Source of the DNA: Okeania sp.
GTDB lineage: Bacteria > Cyanobacteriota > Cyanobacteriia > Cyanobacteriales > Microcoleaceae
Reading direction: 5' to 3'
DNA: 32,000 nt
NCBI RefSeq assembly: GCF_035285525.1
Contig: NZ_JAYKGW010000210.1
Span: forward strand, 88,361 to 120,360
In this document: piece after piece, positions 10,305 to 31,620 of the stretch
How the letters are laid out: every line of letters starts with the position of its first letter
How positions within the stretch are numbered: position 1 is the stretch's first letter
Translations under genes and position numbers: made by a program
Notes under the pieces: generated by a model
What the model saw: the letters and a program-made list of their open reading frames with translations, nothing else
Told to the model about the DNA's origin: nothing
The model's database searches: none

Positions 10305-10552
10305 AAAATAAAAGATGTGAAAATGAAGGGTATTTGACAGTACACTTCATTTTTTTTGTTTAAGCTAAATTGCGAATTTATTTTACATCAAATATGTTGA
10401 TTTTAGATAATCAGATTTTACCTTAAAATATAAAAATAAAAGATGTGAAAATGAAGGGTATTTGACAGTACACTTCATTTTTTTTGTTTAAGCTAAATTG
10501 CGAATTTATTTTACATCAAATATGTTGATTTTAGATAATCAGATTTTACCTT
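10305..10552. repeat. Perfect 120-bp direct duplication (10305-10424 and 10433-10552) separated by AAAATATA
   Basis: I compared the two copies base by base and they are identical. Each contains the AT-rich hairpin AATGAAG-N16-CTTCATT followed by T7. Confidence 0.95.
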
Positions 10553-16074: not shown

Positions 16075-16435
16075 TTAATTGATAATTAATTTAATAGGAA
16101 TTAGGCAAAGCTACTATATATAGAGTTAAAAAACTATTGCACCATAGTTTTAAGCACCATATATATGGTTGCTGCTTAAGTCCTAATTAATTGATAGTTA
16201 ATTTAATAATAATTAGGCAAAGGTACTATATATAGAGTTAAAAAACGATTGTACAATAGTTTTAAGCACCATATATATGGTTACTGCTTAAGTCCTATGA
16301 TAATTATTTCAACTGTTGTACAATAGTTAATTTTTTAGATTTTACAGGACTTACGCAACGACCCTGGATATGGTGCTTAAAACCCCATGCGCAATAGTTT
16401 TTTTTAACTCTATATTAGTACCTTTTCGTAAGTTC
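16075..16435. repeat. Complex repeat: two direct 110-bp units (16075-16184, 16187-16296; 112-bp period) plus one partial inverted unit (16346-16435)
   Basis: Units share TTAATTGATA.TTAATTTAATA..AATTAGGCAAAG.TACTATATATAGAGTTAAAAAAC.ATTG.AC.ATAGTTTTAAGCACCATATATATGGTT.CTGCTTAAGTCCT. The reverse complement of 16346-16435 aligns to the same unit. Confidence 0.8.
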
Positions 16436-17778: not shown

Positions 17779-18125
17779 GTTTGGTTTCCCAACCCAAGTT
17801 AAAATTAGTAGAAAATATCTCATCCCTAAAATTTTTTCAGAAGTTATTTACGATTATCATAGCCATCCTAAATAGGTAACAATATTTGAGATAACGGTTT
17901 CTAAATAAAACCCATTTATTCTTTTGGTTTAGAGATTAGAGTTTGGTTTCCCAACCCAAGTTAAAATTAGTAGAAAATATCTCATCCCTAAAATTTTTTC
18001 AGAAGTTATTTACGATTATCATAGCCATCCTAAATAGGTAGCAATATTTCCTCTAACAGTTTCCAAATAAAACCCATTTATTCCTTTGGTTTAGAGATTA
18101 GAGTTTGGAGACCAAACCCCTACAG
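17779..18125. repeat. Tandem duplication of a 162-bp MITE-like unit (17779-17940, 17941-18102) followed by a related hairpin end (18103-18125)
   Basis: The first 100 nt or so of both units are identical (GTTTGGTTTCCCAACCCAAGTTAAAATTAGTAGAAAATATCTCATCCC...). A roughly 30-nt patch in the second half has diverged. Confidence 0.85.
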
Positions 18126-21256: not shown

Positions 21257-22330
21257 ATGGTAAACGCCCAAACTGGGGAAGACCTCCACATTCGTCTGGA
21301 GGAAACACAGTTATTAGACCGTGATTGTACAACCCTATCACGTCATGTCCTTCAGCAACTTCACAGTTTCTCAGGAGACGCTCAAGATATTAGCGCTTTG
21401 ATGAATCGAATTGCTTTAGCAGGCAAATTAATCGCTCGTCGCTTAACTCGCGCTGGATTAGTCGAAGATGCTTTAGGATTTACTGGCACAGTTAATGTCC
21501 AGGGAGAATCCGTCAAAAAGATGGATATCTATGCCAATGATGTATTTATCTCCGTATTTAAGGAAAGTGGCCTTGTTTGTCGCTTGGCATCCGAGGAGAT
21601 GCAAAAACCCTATTATATTCCCGAAAATTGTCCAATTGGTCGCTATACCCTACTTTACGATCCCTTAGATGGTTCTTCCAATCTTGACATAAATCTCAAT
21701 GTAGGGTCTATTTTTTCAATTCGCCAACAAGAAGGCAATGATGAAGATGGTACTGCCCAAGATTTACTCCAAAGTGGACGTAAACAGATTGCTGCTGGTT
21801 ATATTTTGTATGGCCCTAGCACAATGTTGGTATATTCAATCGGCCAAGGAGTCCACGCATTTACTCTAGACCCTAGTTTGGGTGAGTTTATTCTGACTAA
21901 TGAGAATATTAAAATTCCCGACCACGGTCCAGTCTATAGTGTGAATGAAGGTAACTTTTGGCAGTGGGATGATTCTATCCGGGAGTATATTCGCTATGTT
22001 CATCGCCATGAAGGTTATACTGCTCGTTATGGTGGAGCCTTGGTTGGGGATTTCCATCGAATTTTATACCAAGGTGGGGTGTTTTTATATCCAGGTACGG
22101 TGAAAAAGCCTAGTGGAAAATTACGTTTACTATATGAATCAGCACCGATGGCTTTTTTAATCGAACAAGCAGGTGGGAGAGCTAGTACAGGAAAAGAAGA
22201 AATATTGGATGTAGTGGCAGGAGAACTGCATCAACGCACACCTTTGATTATTGGTAGTAAGGAAGATGTGGCACTTGTTCAGTCTTTTATTAAAGAACAA
22301 GAACGCATTTCTCAAGAAAAGAGGGAGTAA
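21257..22330 (+). CDS. fbp: Class 1 fructose-1,6-bisphosphatase
   Basis: 357 aa; [48 protein letters not shown] motifs; GAGGA 8 nt upstream of the ATG. First gene of the fbp-tal-zwf-opcA arrangement. Confidence 0.93.
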
Positions 22331-23173: not shown

Positions 23174-24322
23174 ATGACAACTAATCATTTGCTAGAAATA
23201 GAAGACTTAGGTCAAAGTATTTGGATGGATAATCTAAGTCGCAATATTATTGAGTCGGGAGAACTCAAAAGCATGATTACTGACAAAGGTATTCGTGGTA
23301 TTACTTCTAACCCCGCAATCTTTGAAAAGGCGATCGCTGGTAATGCTATTTATGATGCGGATATTGAAGCTGGTATTAGTGCTGGTAAGTCAGTGATGGA
23401 AATATATGAGTCTCTTGTGTTTAAGGATATTCGTGATGCTTGTGATATTTTCATGCCAGTTTATGAAAAGACTGAAGGTTTAGATGGTTATATTAGTATA
23501 GAAGTTCCACCAACTATTGCTAAAGATACAGAAAGTACCATTAGTGAAGCACTTCGTTATTATACTGCTATTGGTCGTGAAAACCTAATGATTAAAATTC
23601 CTGGTACACCAGAAGGTTTACCAGCAGTAACGCGAGTTATTAGTGAGGGTATCAATGTCAACGTTACTTTGTTGTTCTCCGTAGAAAGTTATATAAATAC
23701 AGCTTGGGCATATATTGAAGGTTTAGAAGCTAGAGCTGCTAAAGGAGAAGATATTAGTAAAATAGCTTCTGTGGCAAGTTTCTTCCTAAGTCGAATTGAT
23801 AGTAATATTGATGGTACTATTACTAGCAAACTTAAGGATGTCACAGATGAAACTGTTAAGGCAAAACTAGAAGCAGTAAAAGGAAAAGTAGCGATCGCTA
23901 ATGCTAAAATTGCTTATCAAGAATACAAAAACATTATTCAAAGCGAGCGTTGGAAAGCTTTATCAGCAAAAGGGGCAAAAGTACAACGACTATTATGGGC
24001 AAGCACTAGCACTAAAGACCCAAGCTATAGTGATGTCATGTATGTTGATGAATTAATAGGACTTAATACAGTTAATACTTTGCCTCCCCAAACTATTGAT
24101 GCTTGTTTCGATCATTGTGATGTTGACAACCGAGTTGAGACAAACATTGAAGCAGCAAGGGAAGTTATAGAAAGTCTCAAAGACCCAGATATTGATATCA
24201 ATATTGACCAGGTGATGGAGCAACTTCTAGGAGAAGGAATTGATAAATTTGTCAAACCTTTCACTTCTTTAATTAATTCTCTAGAAGAGAAAGTTAAAAA
24301 ATTAGCACCTGTTTCCAACTAA
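23174..24322 (+). CDS. tal: Transaldolase (long cyanobacterial type)
   Basis: 382 aa; GQSIWMDNLSR, GITSNPAIFEKAI, LMIKIPGT (Schiff-base Lys context), NVTLLFS, SFFLSRID, LLWASTSTKDP. Confidence 0.93.
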   Translation: MTTNHLLEIEDLGQSIWMDNLSRNIIESGELKSMITDKGIRGITSNPAIFEKAIAGNAIYDADIEAGISAGKSVMEIYESLVFKDIRDACDIFMPVYEKTEGLDGYISIEVPPTIAKDTESTISEALRYYTAIGRENLMIKIPGTPEGLPAVTRVISEGINVNVTLLFSVESYINTAWAYIEGLEARAAKGEDISKIASVASFFLSRIDSNIDGTITSKLKDVTDETVKAKLEAVKGKVAIANAKIAYQEYKNIIQSERWKALSAKGAKVQRLLWASTSTKDPSYSDVMYVDELIGLNTVNTLPPQTIDACFDHCDVDNRVETNIEAAREVIESLKDPDIDINIDQVMEQLLGEGIDKFVKPFTSLINSLEEKVKKLAPVSN

Positions 24323-24808
24323 TTAAATTTAGAAATTTGTAGTAGGAAATTTGTAGGGTGCGTTTCTGCGCTTGAGCGGACATAAAAAGACGGCTTAACT
24401 ATAAACTATGAAAAAGATTTAGGAATCCGTCGTTACGCACCATCTTAAGTTTTTCAATATATATTAAGATGGTGCGTTAAACTTAGTTTTTTCCTTTCCT
24501 CCGGAATGCTTAGCAAACGGAATGCTGCCTCTTGTAGAGGAGCTGCGCTAACGCAAACATTTCCCGCAGCGTTTTCCTGACGGAATGCTACGCAAATATG
24601 TCGGCTCTTAGCGGAAAATACACTCTACTGGACTGTTTCATCTTAAGATGTAGGTTGGGTTGTAGCTTGCTTCCACGCAGCGGTTCAGAGTGAAACAAAA
24701 AAAACCTTACTAATGTTGGGTCTCGTACCATGCTACGCAACCCTAACAAGAACAACCCAACCTACGGCTAAATCTTGAAACTCATCCAGAAATTATCAAC
24801 TCTTTCTT

Positions 24809-24846
24809 CCTGTTCCCTGTTCCCTGTTCCCTGTTCCCTGTTCCCT
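24809..24846. repeat. Heptamer tandem repeat (CCTGTTC)x5, ending 16 nt before the zwf ATG
   Basis: Exact 7-nt period. The complementary GGGAACA heptamer occurs at 1435-1456. Confidence 0.9.
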
Positions 24847-24862
24847 CTTTATAACTGAATAA

Positions 24863-26392
24863 ATGGTAGCATTATTAGAAAATCCTTTACGGGTTGGATT
24901 ACAACAAGACCGGGTTCCCGAACCACAAATTCTGATTATTTTTGGTGCATCCGGTGACTTAACCCAAAGAAAACTGGTTCCTGCATTATATCAAATGAAG
25001 CTCGAACGGAGACTCCCCCCCGAACTAACAATAGTCGGAGTCGCCCGCAGAGAATGGAGCCATGATTATTTCCGCGAACAAATGCGGACTGGTATACAAG
25101 ACTTTGGGGGTGGTTTACAATCTGAAGATATCTGGAATGATTTTGCCAAAGGACTTTTTTACTGCTCTGGAAACATAGACAAACCAGAAGATTATCAGAA
25201 ACTCAAAGAATTTTTAGCTGAACTGGATGAAGAGAGGGGTACGCGAGGTAATCGTGTATTTTACTTATCGGTAGCACCCCGCTTTTTTGGGGAAGCTACT
25301 CAACAGTTAGGGGCAGCCGGAATGTTAGCTGACCCCAAAAAGCAAAGATTAGTTATTGAAAAACCTTTTGGTAGAGACCTTAGTTCTGCTCAGGTACTGA
25401 ATAAAGTTGTCCGTCAAGTTTGCCCGGAAGAGCAAATATATCGCATTGACCATTATCTGGGTAAAGAAACTGTGCAAAACTTAATGGTATTTAGATTTGC
25501 TAATGCCATTTTTGAACCTTTGTGGAATCGTCAATTTGTCGATAACGTGCAAATTACTGTGGCAGAAACAGTAGGATTAGAAGGACGTGCTGGATATTAT
25601 GAAACATCTGGCGCTCTGCGGGATATGGTACAAAACCACCTGATGCAGTTATTTTCTTTGACAGCAATGGAACCTCCTAACTCCCTAGATGCTGACAGTA
25701 TTCGCAACGAAAAAGTGAAAGTAGTTCAGGCAACTCACTTGGCAGATTTAGAACGGTTAGAATATTCAGCAACTCGTGGTCAGTATACAGAGGGTTGGAT
25801 GAAAGGTAAAAATGTTCCAGCTTATCGGGAAGAGGGTGGAGCAGATTCTAATTCAACAACACCTACTTATGCAGCACTGAAACTGAATATTGATAACTGG
25901 CGTTGGAAAGGAGTACCATTCTATTTGCGGACTGGGAAGCGAATGCCAAAAAAAGTCTCGGAAATTGCGATTCAGTTTAAAGAAGTTCCATATTTGATGT
26001 TCCAGTCCGCAGCTAAACAAGCAAACCCCAATGTTTTGGCTTTGCGCATCCAACCTAATGAGGGGATATCTATGCGTTTTGAAGTGAAAACACCAGGTAG
26101 TTCTTTGCGGACTCGCTCGGTAGATATGGATTTCCGTTACGATACTGCTTTTGGTAAACCAAGTACAGATGCTTATAGTCGTTTATTGATTGATTGTATG
26201 TTAGCAGATCAAACTTTGTTTACTCGTGGTGATGAAGTGGAAGCATCTTGGCGAGCATTAACACCAATACTTAGTATTTGGGATGCTCCGGCTCCACCAG
26301 ATGCAATACCTCTTTATGAAGCAGGTAGTTGGGGACCAGTTGAGGCAGAACTTTTGTTGAATCGAGATGGTCGTCGTTGGCGCAGACTTTAA
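24863..26392 (+). CDS. zwf: Glucose-6-phosphate 1-dehydrogenase
   Basis: 509 aa; NADP site [13 protein letters not shown], active-site [17 protein letters not shown]. Confidence 0.95.
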
Positions 26393-26429
26393 AGCAGTTA
26401 TTCAGTGAACAGTTATCAGTTATCCGCTA

Positions 26430-26835
26430 AAACCTGTAGCACAGGTATCTTGCCTCTAATAACCGTAACTGTAGCACAGGTGTCTTGCCTGTAATCAAGG
26501 TAAATATAGCACAGGGTCTTGACCTGTAAAAACGTAAATGTAGTACAGGCATCTTGCCTGTAATCAAGGTAAATGTAACACAGGCATCTTGCCTGTAATC
26601 AAGGTAAATATAGCACAGGCATCTTGCCTGTAATTAAGGTAAATGTAATACAGGCATCTTGCCTGTAATTAAGGTAAATGTAACACAGGCATCTTGCCTG
26701 TAATTAAGGTAAATATAGCACAGGGTCTTGACCTGTAAAAACGTAAATGTAACACAGGCATCTTGCCTGTAATCAAGGTAAATACAACACAGGGTCTTGA
26801 CCTGTAAAAACGTAAATGTAGCACAGGCATCTTGC
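26430..26835. repeat. Tandem array module 1: 12 units with a 34-35 bp period, each carrying a short hairpin (consensus GTAAATGTAACACAGGCATCTTGCCTGTAATCAAG)
   Basis: ACAGG anchors at 26441, 26476, 26511, 26545, 26580, 26615, 26650, 26685, 26720, 26754, 26789 and 26823. The hairpin is ACAGGCA-TCT-TGCCTGT. Units 3, 9 and 11 carry the variant ACAGGGTCTTGACCTGTAAAAACG. Confidence 0.9.
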
Positions 26836-27122
26836 TGGTTACAGCCGAGAAGGCTGTGTTACAATAAATTGGTGACACGGGTATCTTGCTGGTTACAGCC
26901 TAGAAGGCTTACAATAAATTGGTGACACGGGTATCTTCCTGGTTACAGCCTAGAAGGCTTACAATAAATTGGTGACACGGGTATCTTCCTGGTTACAGCC
27001 TAGAAAGCTTACAATAAATTGGTGACACGGGTATCTTCCTGGTTACAGCCTAGAAAGCTTACAATAAATTGGTGACACAGGTATCTTGCTGGTTAGAGCC
27101 TGGAAGGATGTGTTACAATAAA
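26823..27122. repeat. Tandem array module 2: a hybrid junction unit plus 5 units with an exact 50-bp period (GACACGGGTATCTTCCTGGTTACAGCCTAGAAGGCTTACAATAAATTGGT)
   Basis: ACACGG/ACACAG anchors at 26875, 26925, 26975, 27025 and 27075. The 5' part is homologous to module-1 units, and the added segment has the hairpin AGCCT-AGA-AGGCT. The unit at 26823 starts like module 1 and ends like module 2. Confidence 0.9.
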
Positions 27123-27137
27123 TGAAAACCACTTTAG

Positions 27138-27186
27138 CTGATAACTTATAACTGATAACTGATAACTGATAACTAATAACTGATAT
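27138..27186. repeat. Heptamer tandem repeat (CTGATAA)x7 with two variant units, ending 1 nt before the opcA ATG
   Basis: Exact 7-nt period. The reverse-complement heptamer (CAGTTAT) occurs at 26395-26424 just after the zwf stop. The same CTGATAA array recurs at 31846-31870. Confidence 0.9.
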
Positions 27187-27187
27187 T

Positions 27188-28510
27188 ATGATGACAACAC
27201 TTGTTGCCTTACAACAACCAAAAGATATTTCTCTCAGTGAAATTGAAGCAGAACTCAATAAAATCTGGCTTAGTCAAGGTGGAGGCAAAGCTGCTCCCAT
27301 TGCTACCAGAGCTGCAACTTTTAGTATGGTCATCTATGCACCCGAAGAATGCCAACAACTTTTAGCTGGTTTGGGATTCTACAAAGGTGAAATAGATGGT
27401 TTTAATGGAAGAAGAAGTCGTGAAGCTATCAAAGAGGCTCAAAAAACTTATAAATTACCAATCACAGGTAGACTAGACTCCGAAACCCTCAGTAAGTTAC
27501 GTTCCGAGTGGGCAGCAAAATTACCCGAAGACCAACAATTCTCCAATCTGGATATTAGGGGTTCTGATATTAGTGAAGCGATCGCTAGTCAAAATCCCTG
27601 TAGAATTATCATATTATGTCCTACCTTTGGAGAGGATACAGGGGTAACAGCTCAAGTTTCTGCTTATTGCCCCATTCAGAAAAAGGAGTCTTCCTTAATT
27701 TGTTGTGAATATATTGCCTTACGGGGAACCAAAGAAGCACTGGAACGGATGGGAGACGTAGTTACATCATTAATGGTTCCCGATTTACCTAAATTTGTTT
27801 GGTGGAAAGCTACTCCTAACCCAGAACAAGAACTTTTCCGTCGCCTGTCTGAAAATAGCAATTGCATTATTGTGGATTCATCTTATTTTAGCAATCCAGA
27901 ATCAGAATTTCTGAAAATGGAGGAGTTGATTGAAAATGAAACTTATATTGCTGACTTAAACTGGCATCGAATATCTGCATGGCAAGAGTTAACCGCTGCT
28001 ACTTTTGACCCACCAGAACGTCGGGCTTCTCTGGGTGAAATTGACATAATTACTCTTGATTATGAAAAAGGGAACCCCGCTCAAGCATTAATGTTTTTAG
28101 GTTGGTTCGCTAGTCGTCTTAATTGGCAACCTCAAACTTATACTGCAAATGGTGGTGATTATGATATTACCCATATTAAGTTTATCGGTCCTAATGGTAA
28201 GGAGATTTTAGCAGAGTTAGCAGCTATTCCCACTGCTGACTATGGGGAAATTCCTGGAGATTTAGTGGGTGTACGTTTAGATTCGAGTAATCCGAATACA
28301 GATTGTTGTACTATTTTGTGTTCTGAAACTACTGGTTGTATGAGATTAGAAGCGGGTGGTAGTGCCCAGTCTTGTCGGACAGAGCAGGTAAGTGCTTTAA
28401 GCGATCAGAAGGCGGAATATTTGATGGCTCAACAGTTACAACGTTGGGGAAGAGAGGTTTTGTATGAAGAGAGTTTAGCTGTAACTACTGAAATTATCAA
28501 GTTGCGTTAA
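27188..28510 (+). CDS. opcA: Glucose-6-phosphate dehydrogenase assembly/activator protein OpcA
   Basis: 440 aa; N-terminal LQQPKDISLSEIEAELNKIW…ATRAATFSMVIY, …DLPKFVWWKATP…, and its position directly after zwf. It contains an embedded peptidoglycan-binding-like motif (see findings). Confidence 0.9.
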   Translation: MMTTLVALQQPKDISLSEIEAELNKIWLSQGGGKAAPIATRAATFSMVIYAPEECQQLLAGLGFYKGEIDGFNGRRSREAIKEAQKTYKLPITGRLDSETLSKLRSEWAAKLPEDQQFSNLDIRGSDISEAIASQNPCRIIILCPTFGEDTGVTAQVSAYCPIQKKESSLICCEYIALRGTKEALERMGDVVTSLMVPDLPKFVWWKATPNPEQELFRRLSENSNCIIVDSSYFSNPESEFLKMEELIENETYIADLNWHRISAWQELTAATFDPPERRASLGEIDIITLDYEKGNPAQALMFLGWFASRLNWQPQTYTANGGDYDITHIKFIGPNGKEILAELAAIPTADYGEIPGDLVGVRLDSSNPNTDCCTILCSETTGCMRLEAGGSAQSCRTEQVSALSDQKAEYLMAQQLQRWGREVLYEESLAVTTEIIKLR

Positions 28511-28541
28511 TTTTGGTAGTATAGAGCAGATTTGATGGGTA

Positions 28542-28567
28542 GGGGTTTGGTCTCCAAACCCCCTTTT
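28542..28567 (+). terminator. Candidate intrinsic terminator after opcA (the hairpin is a member of the dispersed GGGGTTTGG..CCAAACCCC repeat)
   Basis: GGGGTTTGG-TCT-CCAAACCCC (28542-28562) followed by CTTTT, 32 nt after the opcA stop. The T-tract is short. Confidence 0.4.
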
Positions 28568-28812
28568 AGTCAGCAGGACTAATATCATGTCCAGATAATT
28601 AGTGAGAAAAAAACTTGGTCCTCCTACCTCCTAGCAGGGGTTGGGGTTGGGTTGATATCAAATCCACTAGCTTTAGACAATAAGTTTGTAGAGGGTTTGG
28701 AGACCAAACCCCTACGGTCTTGAATTCTACCGATACTACCGGATTTGATATTAGGGGTGGGTTCCACATTCCCTACCCTCCCGACACTCTACTTTTTTCA
28801 GCAAACCATAAC

Positions 28813-28928
28813 TAGGGGTTTGGAGACCAAAACACTACAGTTTTGATCACAAATCATTATACTTAAACATTAGGGGTTTGGAGACCAAAACACTACAGTT
28901 TTGATCACAAATCATTATACTTAAACAA
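28813..28928. repeat. Tandem duplication of a 58-bp unit (28813-28870, 28871-28928); 57 nt identical
   Basis: TAGGGGTTTGGAGACCAAAACACTACAGTTTTGATCACAAATCATTATACTTAAACA occurs twice. The second copy contains the stop codon and last two codons of the 28921..31620 gene. Confidence 0.85.
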
Positions 28929-31620
28929 TATTAGCGATTAATCTATAACCAGTGGCACTGCTACCTACTGGAAATACTTCTAAATAATAAATGCCAGGAT
29001 CTAAAGAAGTTTGAATCACCTCTGGTTGAATATCATCCGCATTTGATTGGTTAATCAGTTCTTCATTTTCTCCATACAATTTAATTCCCAAGTTTTGCAC
29101 GAAACCATCTACAAAAATACTCACTAAACCTTCTTTCTTGACTCGGAAACGATAAAAATCTTCTGTATCTCGGTCGTTCGTTCCTGTGAGTAAGCCAATA
29201 TTATCAACTCTGGAAGTTTGCTCTAGGGAAAGAAATCCTAGATTAGTAGCATCTGCAAACTCCTCTGATGTATCTCCTTGTCCTGGATTTTGTGAATTTT
29301 GAGTTTGTGTATCATTATCGCGAATAGTTCCTATTCCCTTTCTGTCTGACAACTGAGCATTTCTGGGTTTGCTGAGATTTACCTGAAACTTCTCATTATT
29401 TTCATCATTGGTATCTCCTAGGATAGGAATACTGACTGTCTTTTTCTTTTGCCCTGGTTTAAATGTCAGAACTCCGTTTTGCTTCTGATAATCTTTTCCC
29501 GATCTAGCACTGCCATCTTTTGTGGCATAATTAACTTTGACTGTTTGACTGCTGGAGTTGTCTAATTTTACTTCAAATTCCATATTTTTCCGACCTCTGT
29601 TTCCTTCGGTTACTTTGGCGTCGCCGATGGATATTTTGGGAGTGGGAGGTTCGTCGTTATCAATGATGGTTCCTATAGCTTGTTTATCCTGGAGTTCCGC
29701 ATTTCGAGGTTTGCTGAGATTGACTTTAAATTTTTCGTTCTTTTCGTCGCGCTTATCTCCAATGATGGGAACTGGGATAGTTTTTTCGGTTTGTCCTGGT
29801 TGGAAGGTAAGGGTTCCTTTTGTCTGTTTGTAGTCTTGGTTAACTTTTGCGGTTTGGTTAGCTGTGGTGTAGTTGACTTTTACTATTTCGTCACTGGGGT
29901 TGTCTAGGGTGACTATGAATCTTGCGGTTTTGTTTTTGTTGCCTTCAGTTATTTTGGCGTCAGAGATGCTAATGTTGGGAGTGAAGTTTACGGGAGTTGT
30001 GTTGATGAGGATAGATACATCGTCTGAATATTCGTTTCCCACAGCTAGATCGGGAATGCCGTCTCCATTAAAATCTTCTGATGCTAATGGGTATGGTCCG
30101 TCTCCCACAGCAAAATTAATAGCTTGACTAAAACTACCATCACCTATTCCAGGTAATACTGATACATTGTCTGAACGCTGGTTCGCTACAGCTAGATCGG
30201 CAATGCCATCTTGATTAAAATCTTCTACTGCTACTGAGTATGGTCCGTCTCCCACATCAAAATTAATAGCTGTACCAAAACCACCAAAGCTTGTTCCTAA
30301 TAATACTGATATGTTGTCTGAACTCCAGTTTCCTACAGCAAAATCAGCAATGCCATCTTGATTAAAATCCTCTACTGCTATAGATATTGGTCTGCTTCCC
30401 ACATTATAGTTAGTAAGTTGACCAAAACTACCGTCACCTACTCCGGTTAACACTGATATGTTGTTTGAATTATTGTTTGCCACAACCAGATCGAAAATGC
30501 CATCTCTATTAAAGTCTCCTACTCCTATTGAGCGGGGGAAGGCTCCCACACGAAAGCTAGTAGCTCCACCAAAATTACCGTTACCTTCTCCCAGTAACAC
30601 TTCTATTTCACCTCTAAAACTGCTACTATTGCCTGAACTCACAGCCAAATCAACAAAGCCATCTCGATTAAAATCTTCTGCTACTATTGAGTCAGTGCGG
30701 CCTCCTACATCAAAATTAGTAGCTGCACCAAAACTACCGTCAGCTATTCCGATTAACACTGATATTTCCTCTGACAACCTGTTTGCCACAGCCAAATCAG
30801 GAATGCCATCTCCATTAAAATCCTCTACTGCTAGTGAGTCAGGATCGCCTGCAACGTCAAAATTAATAGCTGCACCAAAACTACCAAAGCTGGTTCCTAA
30901 TAATACTGATATGTTGCTGTTTGCCACAGCCAAATCGGCAATGCCATCTTGATTAAAATCTTCGACTGCTACCGCTGTAGGTGAGCTTCCCACGGTAAGA
31001 CTACCAGCTAAATCGAAATCAATCGCCTGACTCGCCTCCACCTGAAACAACAAACTCCCATCCAAAATCTCTACCACATCATCCTCATCCCGAATTCGCA
31101 AAAGCTCCCATTCGCTCAAAGGCTCACCACTCACCAACCGTTCAAATATCTTACCCTCATCTCCAGCAGAATCTTCCTCATTGAGCAACCCATCCAAATA
31201 ATGCCCAACCTCCTCCAACACCACATCCACCAAAATTCCATCTTCCGTTCCAGCCAATAAAGAATCAGCCAAATAAACCGTACCAGTCAAAACATCAAAA
31301 CCACCAAGCGCCGGATTCATGTCCGCCGTCGGCAGAACCCGAAAATCGGGCAACCTTTCCCCAGCCAAAATATCTTCAATATAATCTCTAGCAGATTCTA
31401 GATTAACCTCTGAGCCAAAAGCCGTCTGCATATCCGTAGCGAAATCTGGGGCTAAGAGAAAATCCGCCAATTCATCGCGAACCTCAGTCCAGGCATCTTG
31501 AATAACGAGGTCTGTAGTTTCCGGACTTAGGTAACTTCCTGGCCAATACTCAATTTCCGGGAAGATGGAAATTGGCTCTACCAGGAGGCTTGGGTTGTCT
31601 TCAGGTAGGGGGTTGTCCAT
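28921..31620 (-). CDS. Large extracellular-type protein: conserved cyanobacterial N-terminal domain, seven FG-GAP/VCBS repeats (beta-propeller), two Calx-beta domains and a C-terminal PPC (pre-peptidase C-terminal) domain
   Basis: 899 aa. Seven (V/A/S)(E/G)DFN.DG..D.AV.. units spaced about 50 aa apart. Two ISI.DAK.TEGN…V.V.Y.T….A….DY….G.L.F.PGQ..K…P..GD…E..E.F.V.LS.P.NA.L domains. The tail is DTEDFYRFRV…GIYYLEVFP…GYRL. No N-terminal signal peptide is evident. Confidence 0.85.
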   Translation of the reverse strand: MDNPLPEDNPSLLVEPISIFPEIEYWPGSYLSPETTDLVIQDAWTEVRDELADFLLAPDFATDMQTAFGSEVNLESARDYIEDILAGERLPDFRVLPTADMNPALGGFDVLTGTVYLADSLLAGTEDGILVDVVLEEVGHYLDGLLNEEDSAGDEGKIFERLVSGEPLSEWELLRIRDEDDVVEILDGSLLFQVEASQAIDFDLAGSLTVGSSPTAVAVEDFNQDGIADLAVANSNISVLLGTSFGSFGAAINFDVAGDPDSLAVEDFNGDGIPDLAVANRLSEEISVLIGIADGSFGAATNFDVGGRTDSIVAEDFNRDGFVDLAVSSGNSSSFRGEIEVLLGEGNGNFGGATSFRVGAFPRSIGVGDFNRDGIFDLVVANNNSNNISVLTGVGDGSFGQLTNYNVGSRPISIAVEDFNQDGIADFAVGNWSSDNISVLLGTSFGGFGTAINFDVGDGPYSVAVEDFNQDGIADLAVANQRSDNVSVLPGIGDGSFSQAINFAVGDGPYPLASEDFNGDGIPDLAVGNEYSDDVSILINTTPVNFTPNISISDAKITEGNKNKTARFIVTLDNPSDEIVKVNYTTANQTAKVNQDYKQTKGTLTFQPGQTEKTIPVPIIGDKRDEKNEKFKVNLSKPRNAELQDKQAIGTIIDNDEPPTPKISIGDAKVTEGNRGRKNMEFEVKLDNSSSQTVKVNYATKDGSARSGKDYQKQNGVLTFKPGQKKKTVSIPILGDTNDENNEKFQVNLSKPRNAQLSDRKGIGTIRDNDTQTQNSQNPGQGDTSEEFADATNLGFLSLEQTSRVDNIGLLTGTNDRDTEDFYRFRVKKEGLVSIFVDGFVQNLGIKLYGENEELINQSNADDIQPEVIQTSLDPGIYYLEVFPVGSSATGYRLIANIV

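Follow-up and report, generated by a model that had tools for sequence, protein, structure and literature searches.

A probable cluster of GTAG-tagged REP-type elements in the zwf-opcA spacer of a Microcoleaceae cyanobacterium

What is the tandem array of hairpins that fills the spacer between zwf, which encodes glucose-6-phosphate dehydrogenase (G6PDH), and opcA, which encodes its assembly or activator protein, in a 32-kb stretch of Microcoleaceae DNA (hereafter the window, meaning the whole stretch analysed): a device that regulates the two genes, or repeat DNA lodged between them? The initial annotation of the window had described two modules of hairpin repeats bracketed by inverted runs of a heptamer in this 795-bp spacer, and repeat finding and inspection of the sequence bear out that description; it had gone on to propose that the heptamers pair in a co-transcript, loop out the array and set the Zwf:OpcA ratio. 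We find that the array is best explained, with a probability of roughly three in four, as a cluster of GTAG-tagged elements of the repetitive extragenic palindrome (REP) type that was amplified locally, and that it is probably ordinary repeat DNA rather than a purpose-built regulator.

The array is composed of tagged hairpins and inverted hairpin dimers

Tandem Repeats Finder (TRF) resolved the array into a 35-bp period of 11.5 copies at 26435-26835 (score 509) and a 50-bp period of 5.6 copies at 26822-27107 (score 459). A higher-order period of 209 bp is also present, indicating that blocks of units have been duplicated too. With up to three mismatches allowed, the core 17-mer occurs 16 times in the window, where chance would supply 0.06 occurrences, and every one of these lies within the array.

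The monomer of the first module consists of a 5′ tag, one base and a stem of ACAGGCA and TGCCTGT closed by the 3-nt loop TCT; in its single-stranded tagged form it reads GTAGC-ACAGGCATCTTGCCTGT. The tag is GTAG, GTAA, ATAG or ACAA in this module (as in GTAG-C, GTAA-C and ATAG-C) and GTGA-C in the second. Where 12 hairpin units had been counted, we find 11 and a junction unit. Six of the 11 carry the perfect ACAGGCA-TCT-TGCCTGT hairpin, with a folding energy of -9.6 to -10.9 kcal/mol; two have degenerate hairpins (26441 and 26476); and three are a 34-bp variant, whose ACAGG(G)TC-TT-GACCTGT hairpins at 26510, 26719 and 26788 belong to units starting at 26505, 26714 and 26783.

The second module had been given as five exact 50-bp units with an added hairpin. 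Exact 50-bp units number four, preceded by a 54-bp unit and followed by a degenerate one, and the added AGCCT-AGA-AGGCT hairpin is intact in only two 50-bp units. The right half of the module-2 unit is 82-84% complementary to a module-1 unit, from which we conclude that this half is a REP in inverted orientation whose tag, GTGTTAC, is inverted as well. The first unit folds as a single long hairpin of -26.5 kcal/mol; it and the last unit keep the full dimer, and the four inner units are without the GTGT that completes the dimer's right end. The two arms of the dimer have diverged, one having ACAGGCA with the loop TCT and the other ACAGCCT with the loop TCT or TCC. This pattern and the near-identity of the inner units fit an older dimer that gave rise to a derived copy, which was then amplified recently.

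Between unit types the stems differ by paired changes: in the 34-bp variant the sixth and seventh pairs, C-G and A-T, are replaced by T-A and C-G, and in the right arm of module 2 the fifth pair is C-G instead of G-C. These compensatory double changes indicate that the hairpin has been maintained, as would be expected both of a single-stranded-DNA substrate for a transposase and of an RNA structure; they do not discriminate between the two.

The tagged hairpin is dispersed among cyanobacteria

We scanned the contigs of a one-genome-per-species collection (596 Gb, both strands) for ACAGGYRTCTTGCCTGTAA and found matches at no fewer than 117 loci, against about 17 that, by our arithmetic, chance would yield in the whole collection. 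The matches listed are mostly from cyanobacteria of many orders, among them Symploca, Caldora, Okeania, Dapis, Trichodesmium, Microcoleus, Planktothrix, Geminocystis, Microcystis, Prochloron, Dolichospermum, Sphaerospermopsis and Nostoc, and several genomes hold at least 6-8 core-hairpin loci each; a few tagged copies come from metagenome-assembled genomes (MAGs) of Verrucomicrobiota, Chloroflexota, Nitrospirota and delta-proteobacteria. The tag formed no part of the search pattern; a GT[AG]G-type tag adjoins the stem all the same, 123 of the 152 distinct copies having GT[AG][AG] at -5 to -2, most commonly as GTGGA, GTAGC, GTAAA, GTGGC or GTAAC. The GTAA and GTGA tags of the window's own units are looser than the canonical GT[AG]G. 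Open reading frames (ORFs) of at least 150 aa contain 25% of the tagged copies, compared with 72% of random positions and 64% of the untagged, chance-like matches; put the other way, 75% of tagged copies and 28% of random positions lie outside long ORFs. By definition, a GTAG-tagged REP is a short (20-40 bp), multi-copy and extragenic palindrome whose 5′ GT[AG]G tag, its hallmark, stays unpaired.

The same hairpin builds tandem arrays elsewhere, with periods of 24 bp (at least ten copies; L063) and 29 bp (L049) in Symploca, 30 bp (L043) and 31 bp (L058) in Microcoleus and 41 bp in Dapis M172 (L098). These arrays use linkers unlike those of the window, and several of them occupy spacers between co-directional ORFs. 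The exact module-1 unit, linker included, had no match in our metagenome scan, which argues that the bare REP is the dispersed element and that the linker is local. Dimers are dispersed as well: strict dimers with an inverted tag occur at three loci in Microcystis and other genomes, and the right arm of module 2 with its inverted tag is solitary at 11 metagenome loci, one of which shares the layout of left and right arm (for example, GTAACACAAGCATCTTGCTTG-TTACAGCCTAGAAGGCTGTGTTAC). Because the two-hairpin unit, an inverted REP pair that forms one long hairpin, thus exists on its own at other loci, an origin of module 2 from module 1 in place, as first suggested, is unlikely.

A hairpin unit scattered over many unrelated loci and genomes is an outcome that the initial annotation had itself named as refuting its functional idea; that reading thus fails, although the structural part of the interpretation is borne out. 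Among the roles it had listed, the expanding satellite came nearest, and is more precisely called a REP cluster. It is hardly conceivable, on the other hand, that the array is a locus-specific minisatellite, or resembles CRISPR arrays or those of long tandemly repeated repetitive (LTRR) sequences, with no relation to dispersed elements. Its units are tandem, regularly spaced and hairpin-forming, as they would be in such an array, but they abut one another, the 13-nt linker is itself repeated, and the tagged hairpin occurs at more than 100 loci in other genomes. We rejected a CRISPR or LTRR array on the grounds that the units enclose no unique spacers, the window has no cas genes and there is no CRISPR match in Rfam.

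Some further observations concern the distribution of the hairpin. Copies or arrays at four loci in Microcoleus and a Microcoleaceae MAG (L013, L080, L043 and L046) lie in stop-to-stop ORFs of about 400-550 aa and more, and are possible intragenic REPs. Of 128 REP sites, eight have a heptamer array with three or more copies no farther than about 70 nt away, compared with 1.9% of random positions; the random control includes coding DNA, and we do not find this association convincing. Two REP loci within 8 kb of zwf, neither of them in the spacer, are in REP-rich genomes, and we judge their position to be coincidental. A full-text literature search for the hairpin sequence returned no match.

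The array is lineage-specific and fast-evolving

We wondered how the array is distributed among relatives of the host. Orthologous spacers without it are found in relatives whose OpcA is 84-87% identical: Trichodesmium erythraeum IMS101 (374 bp), Dapis M126 (219 bp) and M172 (519 bp), Trichodesmium sp. MO_231 (595 bp), Okeania SIO2B3 (453 bp) and a Microcoleaceae MAG (179 bp). The REP is nevertheless present elsewhere in the genomes of Dapis M172 and Okeania SIO2B3, at five loci between them. The orthologous spacers differ by other small insertions, which suggests that the zwf-opcA spacer is an insertion hot spot. In L127, a contig whose OpcA is 98% identical, the 232 bp available on the upstream side of opcA hold a module-1 unit's end, three dimer units whose linkers are different, and a CTGATAA run, and further REP copies form an array with a period of about 100 bp downstream of opcA (1556-1786). 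Absent from the distant relatives and composed differently in L127, the array is thus lineage-specific and fast-evolving.

The downstream array of L127 is made up of GTGGA-ACAGGCA-(GGA/TCC)-TGCCTGT together with runs of heptamers and another hairpin (GGGACGGGCAGGATGCCCATCCC), and the heptamers TACTGTT and TTCTGTT stand directly 3′ of REP copies in this contig.

Immediately ahead of opcA, a leader some 70 nt long (TAGGAAAAAGAAGCC...GGTTTAACGCAAGCATCACCAAAGAACTAAGCATTTAC) is conserved at five loci, from IMS101, Dapis, MO_231 and the Microcoleaceae MAG; it is absent from the window (27100-27187) and from L127, in both of which repeats extend to the ATG. The lack of a Shine-Dalgarno sequence before opcA, to which attention had been drawn, is real but not special, as the orthologues are without one too.

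With the leader lost, the array might have donated a promoter: AT-rich flank and the last dimer's right end would together create an extended -10 element from which opcA would have gained its own transcription start. Indeed, TGTTACAAT (27111-27119), in the last dimer unit, resembles an extended -10 element (TGnTACAAT) and precedes the opcA ATG by 69 nt; a promoter scan flagged this junction in the first dimer unit too (26838-26865), L127 has TGTTATAAA at a similar distance, and the leader of the more distant relatives is missing here. No -35 element accompanies it, however, and promoter-like matches in the region are barely more frequent than in shuffled sequence (17 versus 10.1 ± 3.1), and we consider a donated promoter quite unlikely.

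An older pair of inverted heptamer runs brackets the array

The REP array lies between the arms of an inverted heptamer pair. The inverted runs are as first reported, although only three CAGTTAT and four CTGATAA copies are perfect, and the 15-mer at 26410-26424 is, as claimed, exactly complementary to 27154-27168. The long-range stem anticipated from this complementarity is predicted in both the minimum free energy (MFE) and the centroid RNA fold of the spacer (z = -6.6 versus shuffles), and comparable pairing of (CAGUUAU)n with a CUGAUAA-type sequence is predicted in four orthologues, from two Dapis strains, Trichodesmium sp. MO_231 and Okeania, whose spacers hold different inserts. A (CAGTTAT)3-5 run directly after the zwf stop is common to both Dapis strains, MO_231 and Okeania, and a AACTGATAACTAATAAG-like tract downstream is common to the window, Dapis and MO_231; since Dapis and MO_231 share both the 5′ run and the tract and are free of the array, the heptamer pair predates it.

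Could this stem be the core of a dedicated RNA element? In such an element the heptamers would pair, the array would be looped out and the zwf stop would meet the opcA start, so that the Zwf:OpcA ratio would be set through stability, processing or translational coupling. The predicted stem, its counterparts in orthologous spacers and the position of the window's 3′ arm, which ends 19 nt before the ATG, all point this way. The pair is weak evidence for function, however, because the relatives share ancestry and the pair counts as one inherited feature, the T. erythraeum IMS101 spacer is without it, the distance from 3′ arm to ATG ranges from 19 nt in the window to 137-368 nt in the relatives, and the CAGTTAT-type heptamer is found at four sites in the window, in both orientations. 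A loop of 740 nt is, moreover, unlikely to close in co-transcriptional folding; the content of the array is dispersed REP that differs between 98%-identical relatives; and Rfam 15 covariance models gave no match at E <= 1 on either strand of 24000-29000. A dedicated RNA element is therefore, in our estimation, unlikely.

In the Microcoleaceae MAG contig L129 (2822-3000) a different run, (AAAGTYA)6, follows the zwf stop and looks complementary to a conserved downstream CAACTTTTGAC; this run, too, pairs with downstream sequence in the predicted MFE fold, which is another, different means by which a spacer's start may pair with sequence farther along it.

Probable read-through of the array by zwf transcription

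A scan for terminator-like sites found none on the sense strand of 26393-27187, and the spacer has no candidate for an intrinsic terminator or attenuator between zwf and opcA, its matches all being on the minus strand. Because no U tracts accompany the sense-strand hairpins, read-through from zwf is probable. Near the operon end, the sole terminator-like site on the sense strand is a GTAG-tagged palindrome that belongs to a second family, has a T tract after it and lies just 3′ of opcA (Table 1). Within module 1, eight units coincide with terminator-like sites of the minus strand, which would suit an array that serves as a barrier to antisense transcription, or one that acts at the DNA level as a platform for nucleoid proteins or gyrase; the bacterial interspersed mosaic elements (BIMEs) of E. 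coli bind IHF and gyrase. The T tails of these sites are weak (TTACATTTAC), though, we know of no protein partner in cyanobacteria, and the array is absent from more distant relatives, so that we hold a platform or barrier role to be very unlikely.

On the REP-cluster reading, a REP or REP dimer would have landed between the pre-existing inverted heptamer runs in the zwf-opcA spacer and then multiplied there, whether by slipped-strand replication, by unequal recombination of one hairpin unit with another or, alternatively, by a Y1 transposase of the REP-associated tyrosine transposase (RAYT) type acting on single-stranded hairpins; the conserved opcA leader would have been lost in this lineage. 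The array would be primarily selfish or neutral repeat DNA. With zwf transcription reading through it, a zwf-opcA co-transcript, if formed as in Nostoc punctiforme, would carry about 17 hairpins without U tracts; these may block 3′-to-5′ exonucleases and stabilise the zwf segment relative to opcA, perhaps with some pausing or processing, and by analogy with E. coli the array might favour zwf mRNA over opcA. REP hairpins there are said to stabilise upstream mRNA, a result attributed to Newbury in 1987. E. coli REP hairpins stabilise the 3′ ends of upstream mRNA and do not terminate transcription (PMC12642595).

It is improbable that the REP array, closed by its heptamers, now serves as a co-opted RNA device in the zwf-opcA transcript of this lineage, in which exonuclease-blocking hairpins held within the long-range stem would have replaced the opcA leader and would set the Zwf:OpcA ratio; if it were, repeat copy number would be a fast-evolving tuning knob.

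Candidate transposases and the weight of the REP-cluster reading

Cyanobacterial TnpA_REP genes fall into several subclasses and are flanked by REPs with a 5′ GT[AG]G, according to Quentin et al. (PMC6006769). We searched for a RAYT with hidden Markov models, phmmer and regular expressions, using 11 published RAYT/IS200 seeds, and by tblastn with two cyanobacterial seeds; the RAYT loci examined include L147, L148, L150 and L152, and the cyanobacterial RAYT subclasses 2.4, 2.7 and 2.8 (PMC6006769) were left out. Class-2.1-like Y1 genes on Nostoc and Cylindrospermopsis plasmids were rejected as the cognate enzyme, not being flanked by this REP. Inverted REP pairs lying 0.4-3.6 kb apart at four loci (L031, L046, L074 and L092) enclose no transposase.

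Several findings weigh against reading the array as a REP cluster. The searches turned up no Y1 transposase gene in the window or across about 1.1 Mb of examined loci; a highly conserved 183-aa RAYT family, with 60-80% identity between cyanobacterial orders and members in Okeania, Symploca, Microcystis, Dolichospermum and Floridaenema among others, had to be discarded as the cognate enzyme, since the GTAG-tagged REP that flanks it in Kovacikia, Gloeocapsa, Okeania and Floridaenema is another one, of the GTAGGGTGCGTTAC type. At up to three mismatches the core REP occurs nowhere else in the 32-kb window, and its dispersal is that seen in relatives and other cyanobacteria, not in the source genome. 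The heptamer pair, kept in several relatives and predicted to pair, is left unexplained by this reading, and every RNA-level effect is inferred. We nevertheless favour a REP cluster: the filing as REP-type rests on structure (a short stem-loop palindrome with a 7-bp stem, a 3-nt loop and compensatory changes), tag, dispersal and extragenic position, not on a REP-RAYT pair.

One weak match to the GTAGGGTGCGTTAC-type REP lies in the tal-zwf spacer of the window (24353-24365). A second family of GTAG-tagged palindromes, GTAGG-GGGTTTGG-NNN-CCAAACCCC, has seven copies of about 21 nt in the window (10579, 17776, 18100, 28542, 28692, 28815 and 28873), where none would be expected by chance; copies of it edge tandem duplications at 17779-18108 (162 bp x2) and 28813-28927 (58 bp x2, 100% identical).

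Gene context, host and other repeats of the window

The genes run in the order fbp-tal-zwf-opcA, all on the plus strand (Table 1), with the zwf stop TAA at 26390-26392 and the opcA ATG, whose position is backed by alignment with ten orthologues, at 27188. In Nostoc punctiforme these four genes are reportedly co-transcribed, a finding credited to Summers and Meeks in 1996. Apart from a 98%-identical metagenome protein, the closest matches to OpcA are from Dapis, Trichodesmium, Hydrocoleum and Okeania, at 85-87% identity, which identifies the host, as judged from protein similarity, as one of the Microcoleaceae, of the Trichodesmium/Okeania clade and like Trichodesmium, Okeania or Dapis; the initial annotation was mistaken in giving the related group as Nostocales. 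Two Logan contigs contain the window's exact Zwf or OpcA; both are short and end in the array or the flanking heptamers. Arrays of such repeats typically break short-read assemblies, and the Logan contigs here end in one.

Table 1 Features of the fbp-tal-zwf-opcA locus and of the array, in window coordinates
Feature	Position	Strand	Details
fbp	21257-22330	+	
tal	23174-24322	+	
zwf (glucose-6-phosphate dehydrogenase), upstream gene	24863-26392	+	TIGR00871, E 2e-202
5′ heptamer run, CAGTTAT	26395-26424	+	4.1 copies
Long-range stem, 5′ arm (predicted)	26395-26431	+	pairs with 27133-27168
Module 1, 11 head-to-tail REP monomers	26435-26816	+	tag, 1 nt, 7-bp stem, 3-nt loop, ~13-nt linker
First module-2 unit, complete inverted REP dimer (REPIN-like)	26817-26870	+	54 bp; TGTAGCACAGGCATCTTGCTGG-TTAC-AGCCGAGAAGGCTGTGTTACA
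Four exact 50-bp dimer-derived units	26871-27070	+	93-98% mutual identity
Last, degenerate dimer unit and tail	27071-27137	+	retains GTGTTAC inverted tag
Long-range stem, 3′ arm (predicted)	27133-27168	+	pairs with 26395-26431
3′ heptamer run, CTGATAA	27138-27186	+	6.9 copies; reverse complement of 5′ run; abuts opcA ATG; TRF 27138-27185
opcA (G6PDH assembly/activator protein), downstream gene	27188-28510	+	TIGR00534, E 8e-101
Second-family palindrome and T tract, just 3′ of opcA stop	28539-28572	+	GTAGG-GGTTTGG-TCT-CCAAACC

In three relatives, L128 (1-239), L129 (1-1192) and L131 (1-740), a TnpB gene (OrfB_IS605 / Cas12f-like) lies between tal and zwf; the tal-zwf spacer of the window is 540 bp long and has no TnpB gene, and the ends of the TnpB element beside zwf in the relatives show no similarity to the array REP. 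A perfect heptamer run, (CCTGTTC)5.4 at 24809-24846, ends 17 nt upstream of the zwf ATG and is similar in sequence to the REP's 3′ stem end (GCCTGT).

Tandem duplications and heptamer runs are generally abundant in the window. In its intergenic regions, a stretch of 128 bp is duplicated exactly in tandem (1.9 copies, 100%) and another of 112 bp less exactly (x2, 92%), at 10305-10552 and 16075-16297. Farther downstream, on the minus strand, an 899-aa protein (28921-31620) is encoded with 147-bp (49-aa) tandem coding repeats (6.4 copies, 30034-30971); it has weak Calx-beta/SVAGG-type matches and is probably a large repeat-containing surface protein.

Implications and comparison with known repeat systems

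An apparently unique 'regulatory array' is, on the reading that we favour, an instance of a widespread cyanobacterial REP family. Conserved down to the nucleotide across many cyanobacterial orders and repeatedly forming arrays, the tagged 17-nt hairpin should be a handy marker and is a candidate substrate for a Y1 transposase. The hot-spot spacer and the loss of the leader together offer a natural experiment on the effect of repeat invasion on expression within an operon.

The closest parallels are the REP/BIME clusters of E. coli, Salmonella and Pseudomonas, the literature on which is said to run from Stern in 1984 and Newbury in 1987 to Ton-Hoang in 2012. Like them, the array is made of short, imperfect, extragenic, multi-copy palindromes with a 5′ tag of the GT[AG]G type, which often lie between co-transcribed genes, take single, inverted-dimer and cluster forms, and fold into hairpins without U tracts. 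It differs from them in that its stem is shorter and more AT-rich (7 bp, with a 3-nt loop), its copy number at one locus is very high (17 units) and its REP has no assigned cognate RAYT. It also departs from the regular alternation of orientation that is typical of BIMEs, since module 1 is wholly head-to-tail and orientation alternates only inside the module-2 units.

The flanking runs recall the short tandemly repeated repetitive (STRR) heptamers of filamentous cyanobacteria, reportedly described by Mazel in 1990: they are likewise heptamers repeated in tandem between genes, and a period of 7 accounts for 31 of the 62 TRF rows of the window. The CAGTTAT / CTGATAA sequence is unlike STRR1-3, however, and here two inverted runs of one heptamer stand around a spacer. 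With CRISPR and LTRR arrays the array shares hairpin-forming direct repeats of about 35 bp.

Nearer in host, Di Nocera et al. (2013; PMC3733652) describe the cyanobacterial GTAG-tagged REP families GTAG-12, GTAG-15 and GTAG-16, common to distant genera and found as singletons, as head-to-head, tail-to-tail and head-to-tail dimers and as tandem clusters with flanking DNA. The array REP has in common with them the host phylum, the GTAG-tagged stem-loop and the spread over distant genera; we liken it to them by description, not by consensus, and make no family assignment, Microcoleaceae having been outside that survey (PMC3733652).

The module-2 unit, finally, resembles the REP doublets forming hairpins, or REPINs, of Bertels and Rainey (2011; PMC3116915), in that it comprises two inverted REPs folding into one -26.5 kcal/mol hairpin and is solitary elsewhere. 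REPINs are defined by mobilisation via a single-copy RAYT, and module 2 is likened to them by structure and dispersal only; unlike theirs, its dimer is tandemly amplified and its arms have diverged (PMC3116915). The array as a whole is a new instance of an already-known kind of repeat, the REP cluster.

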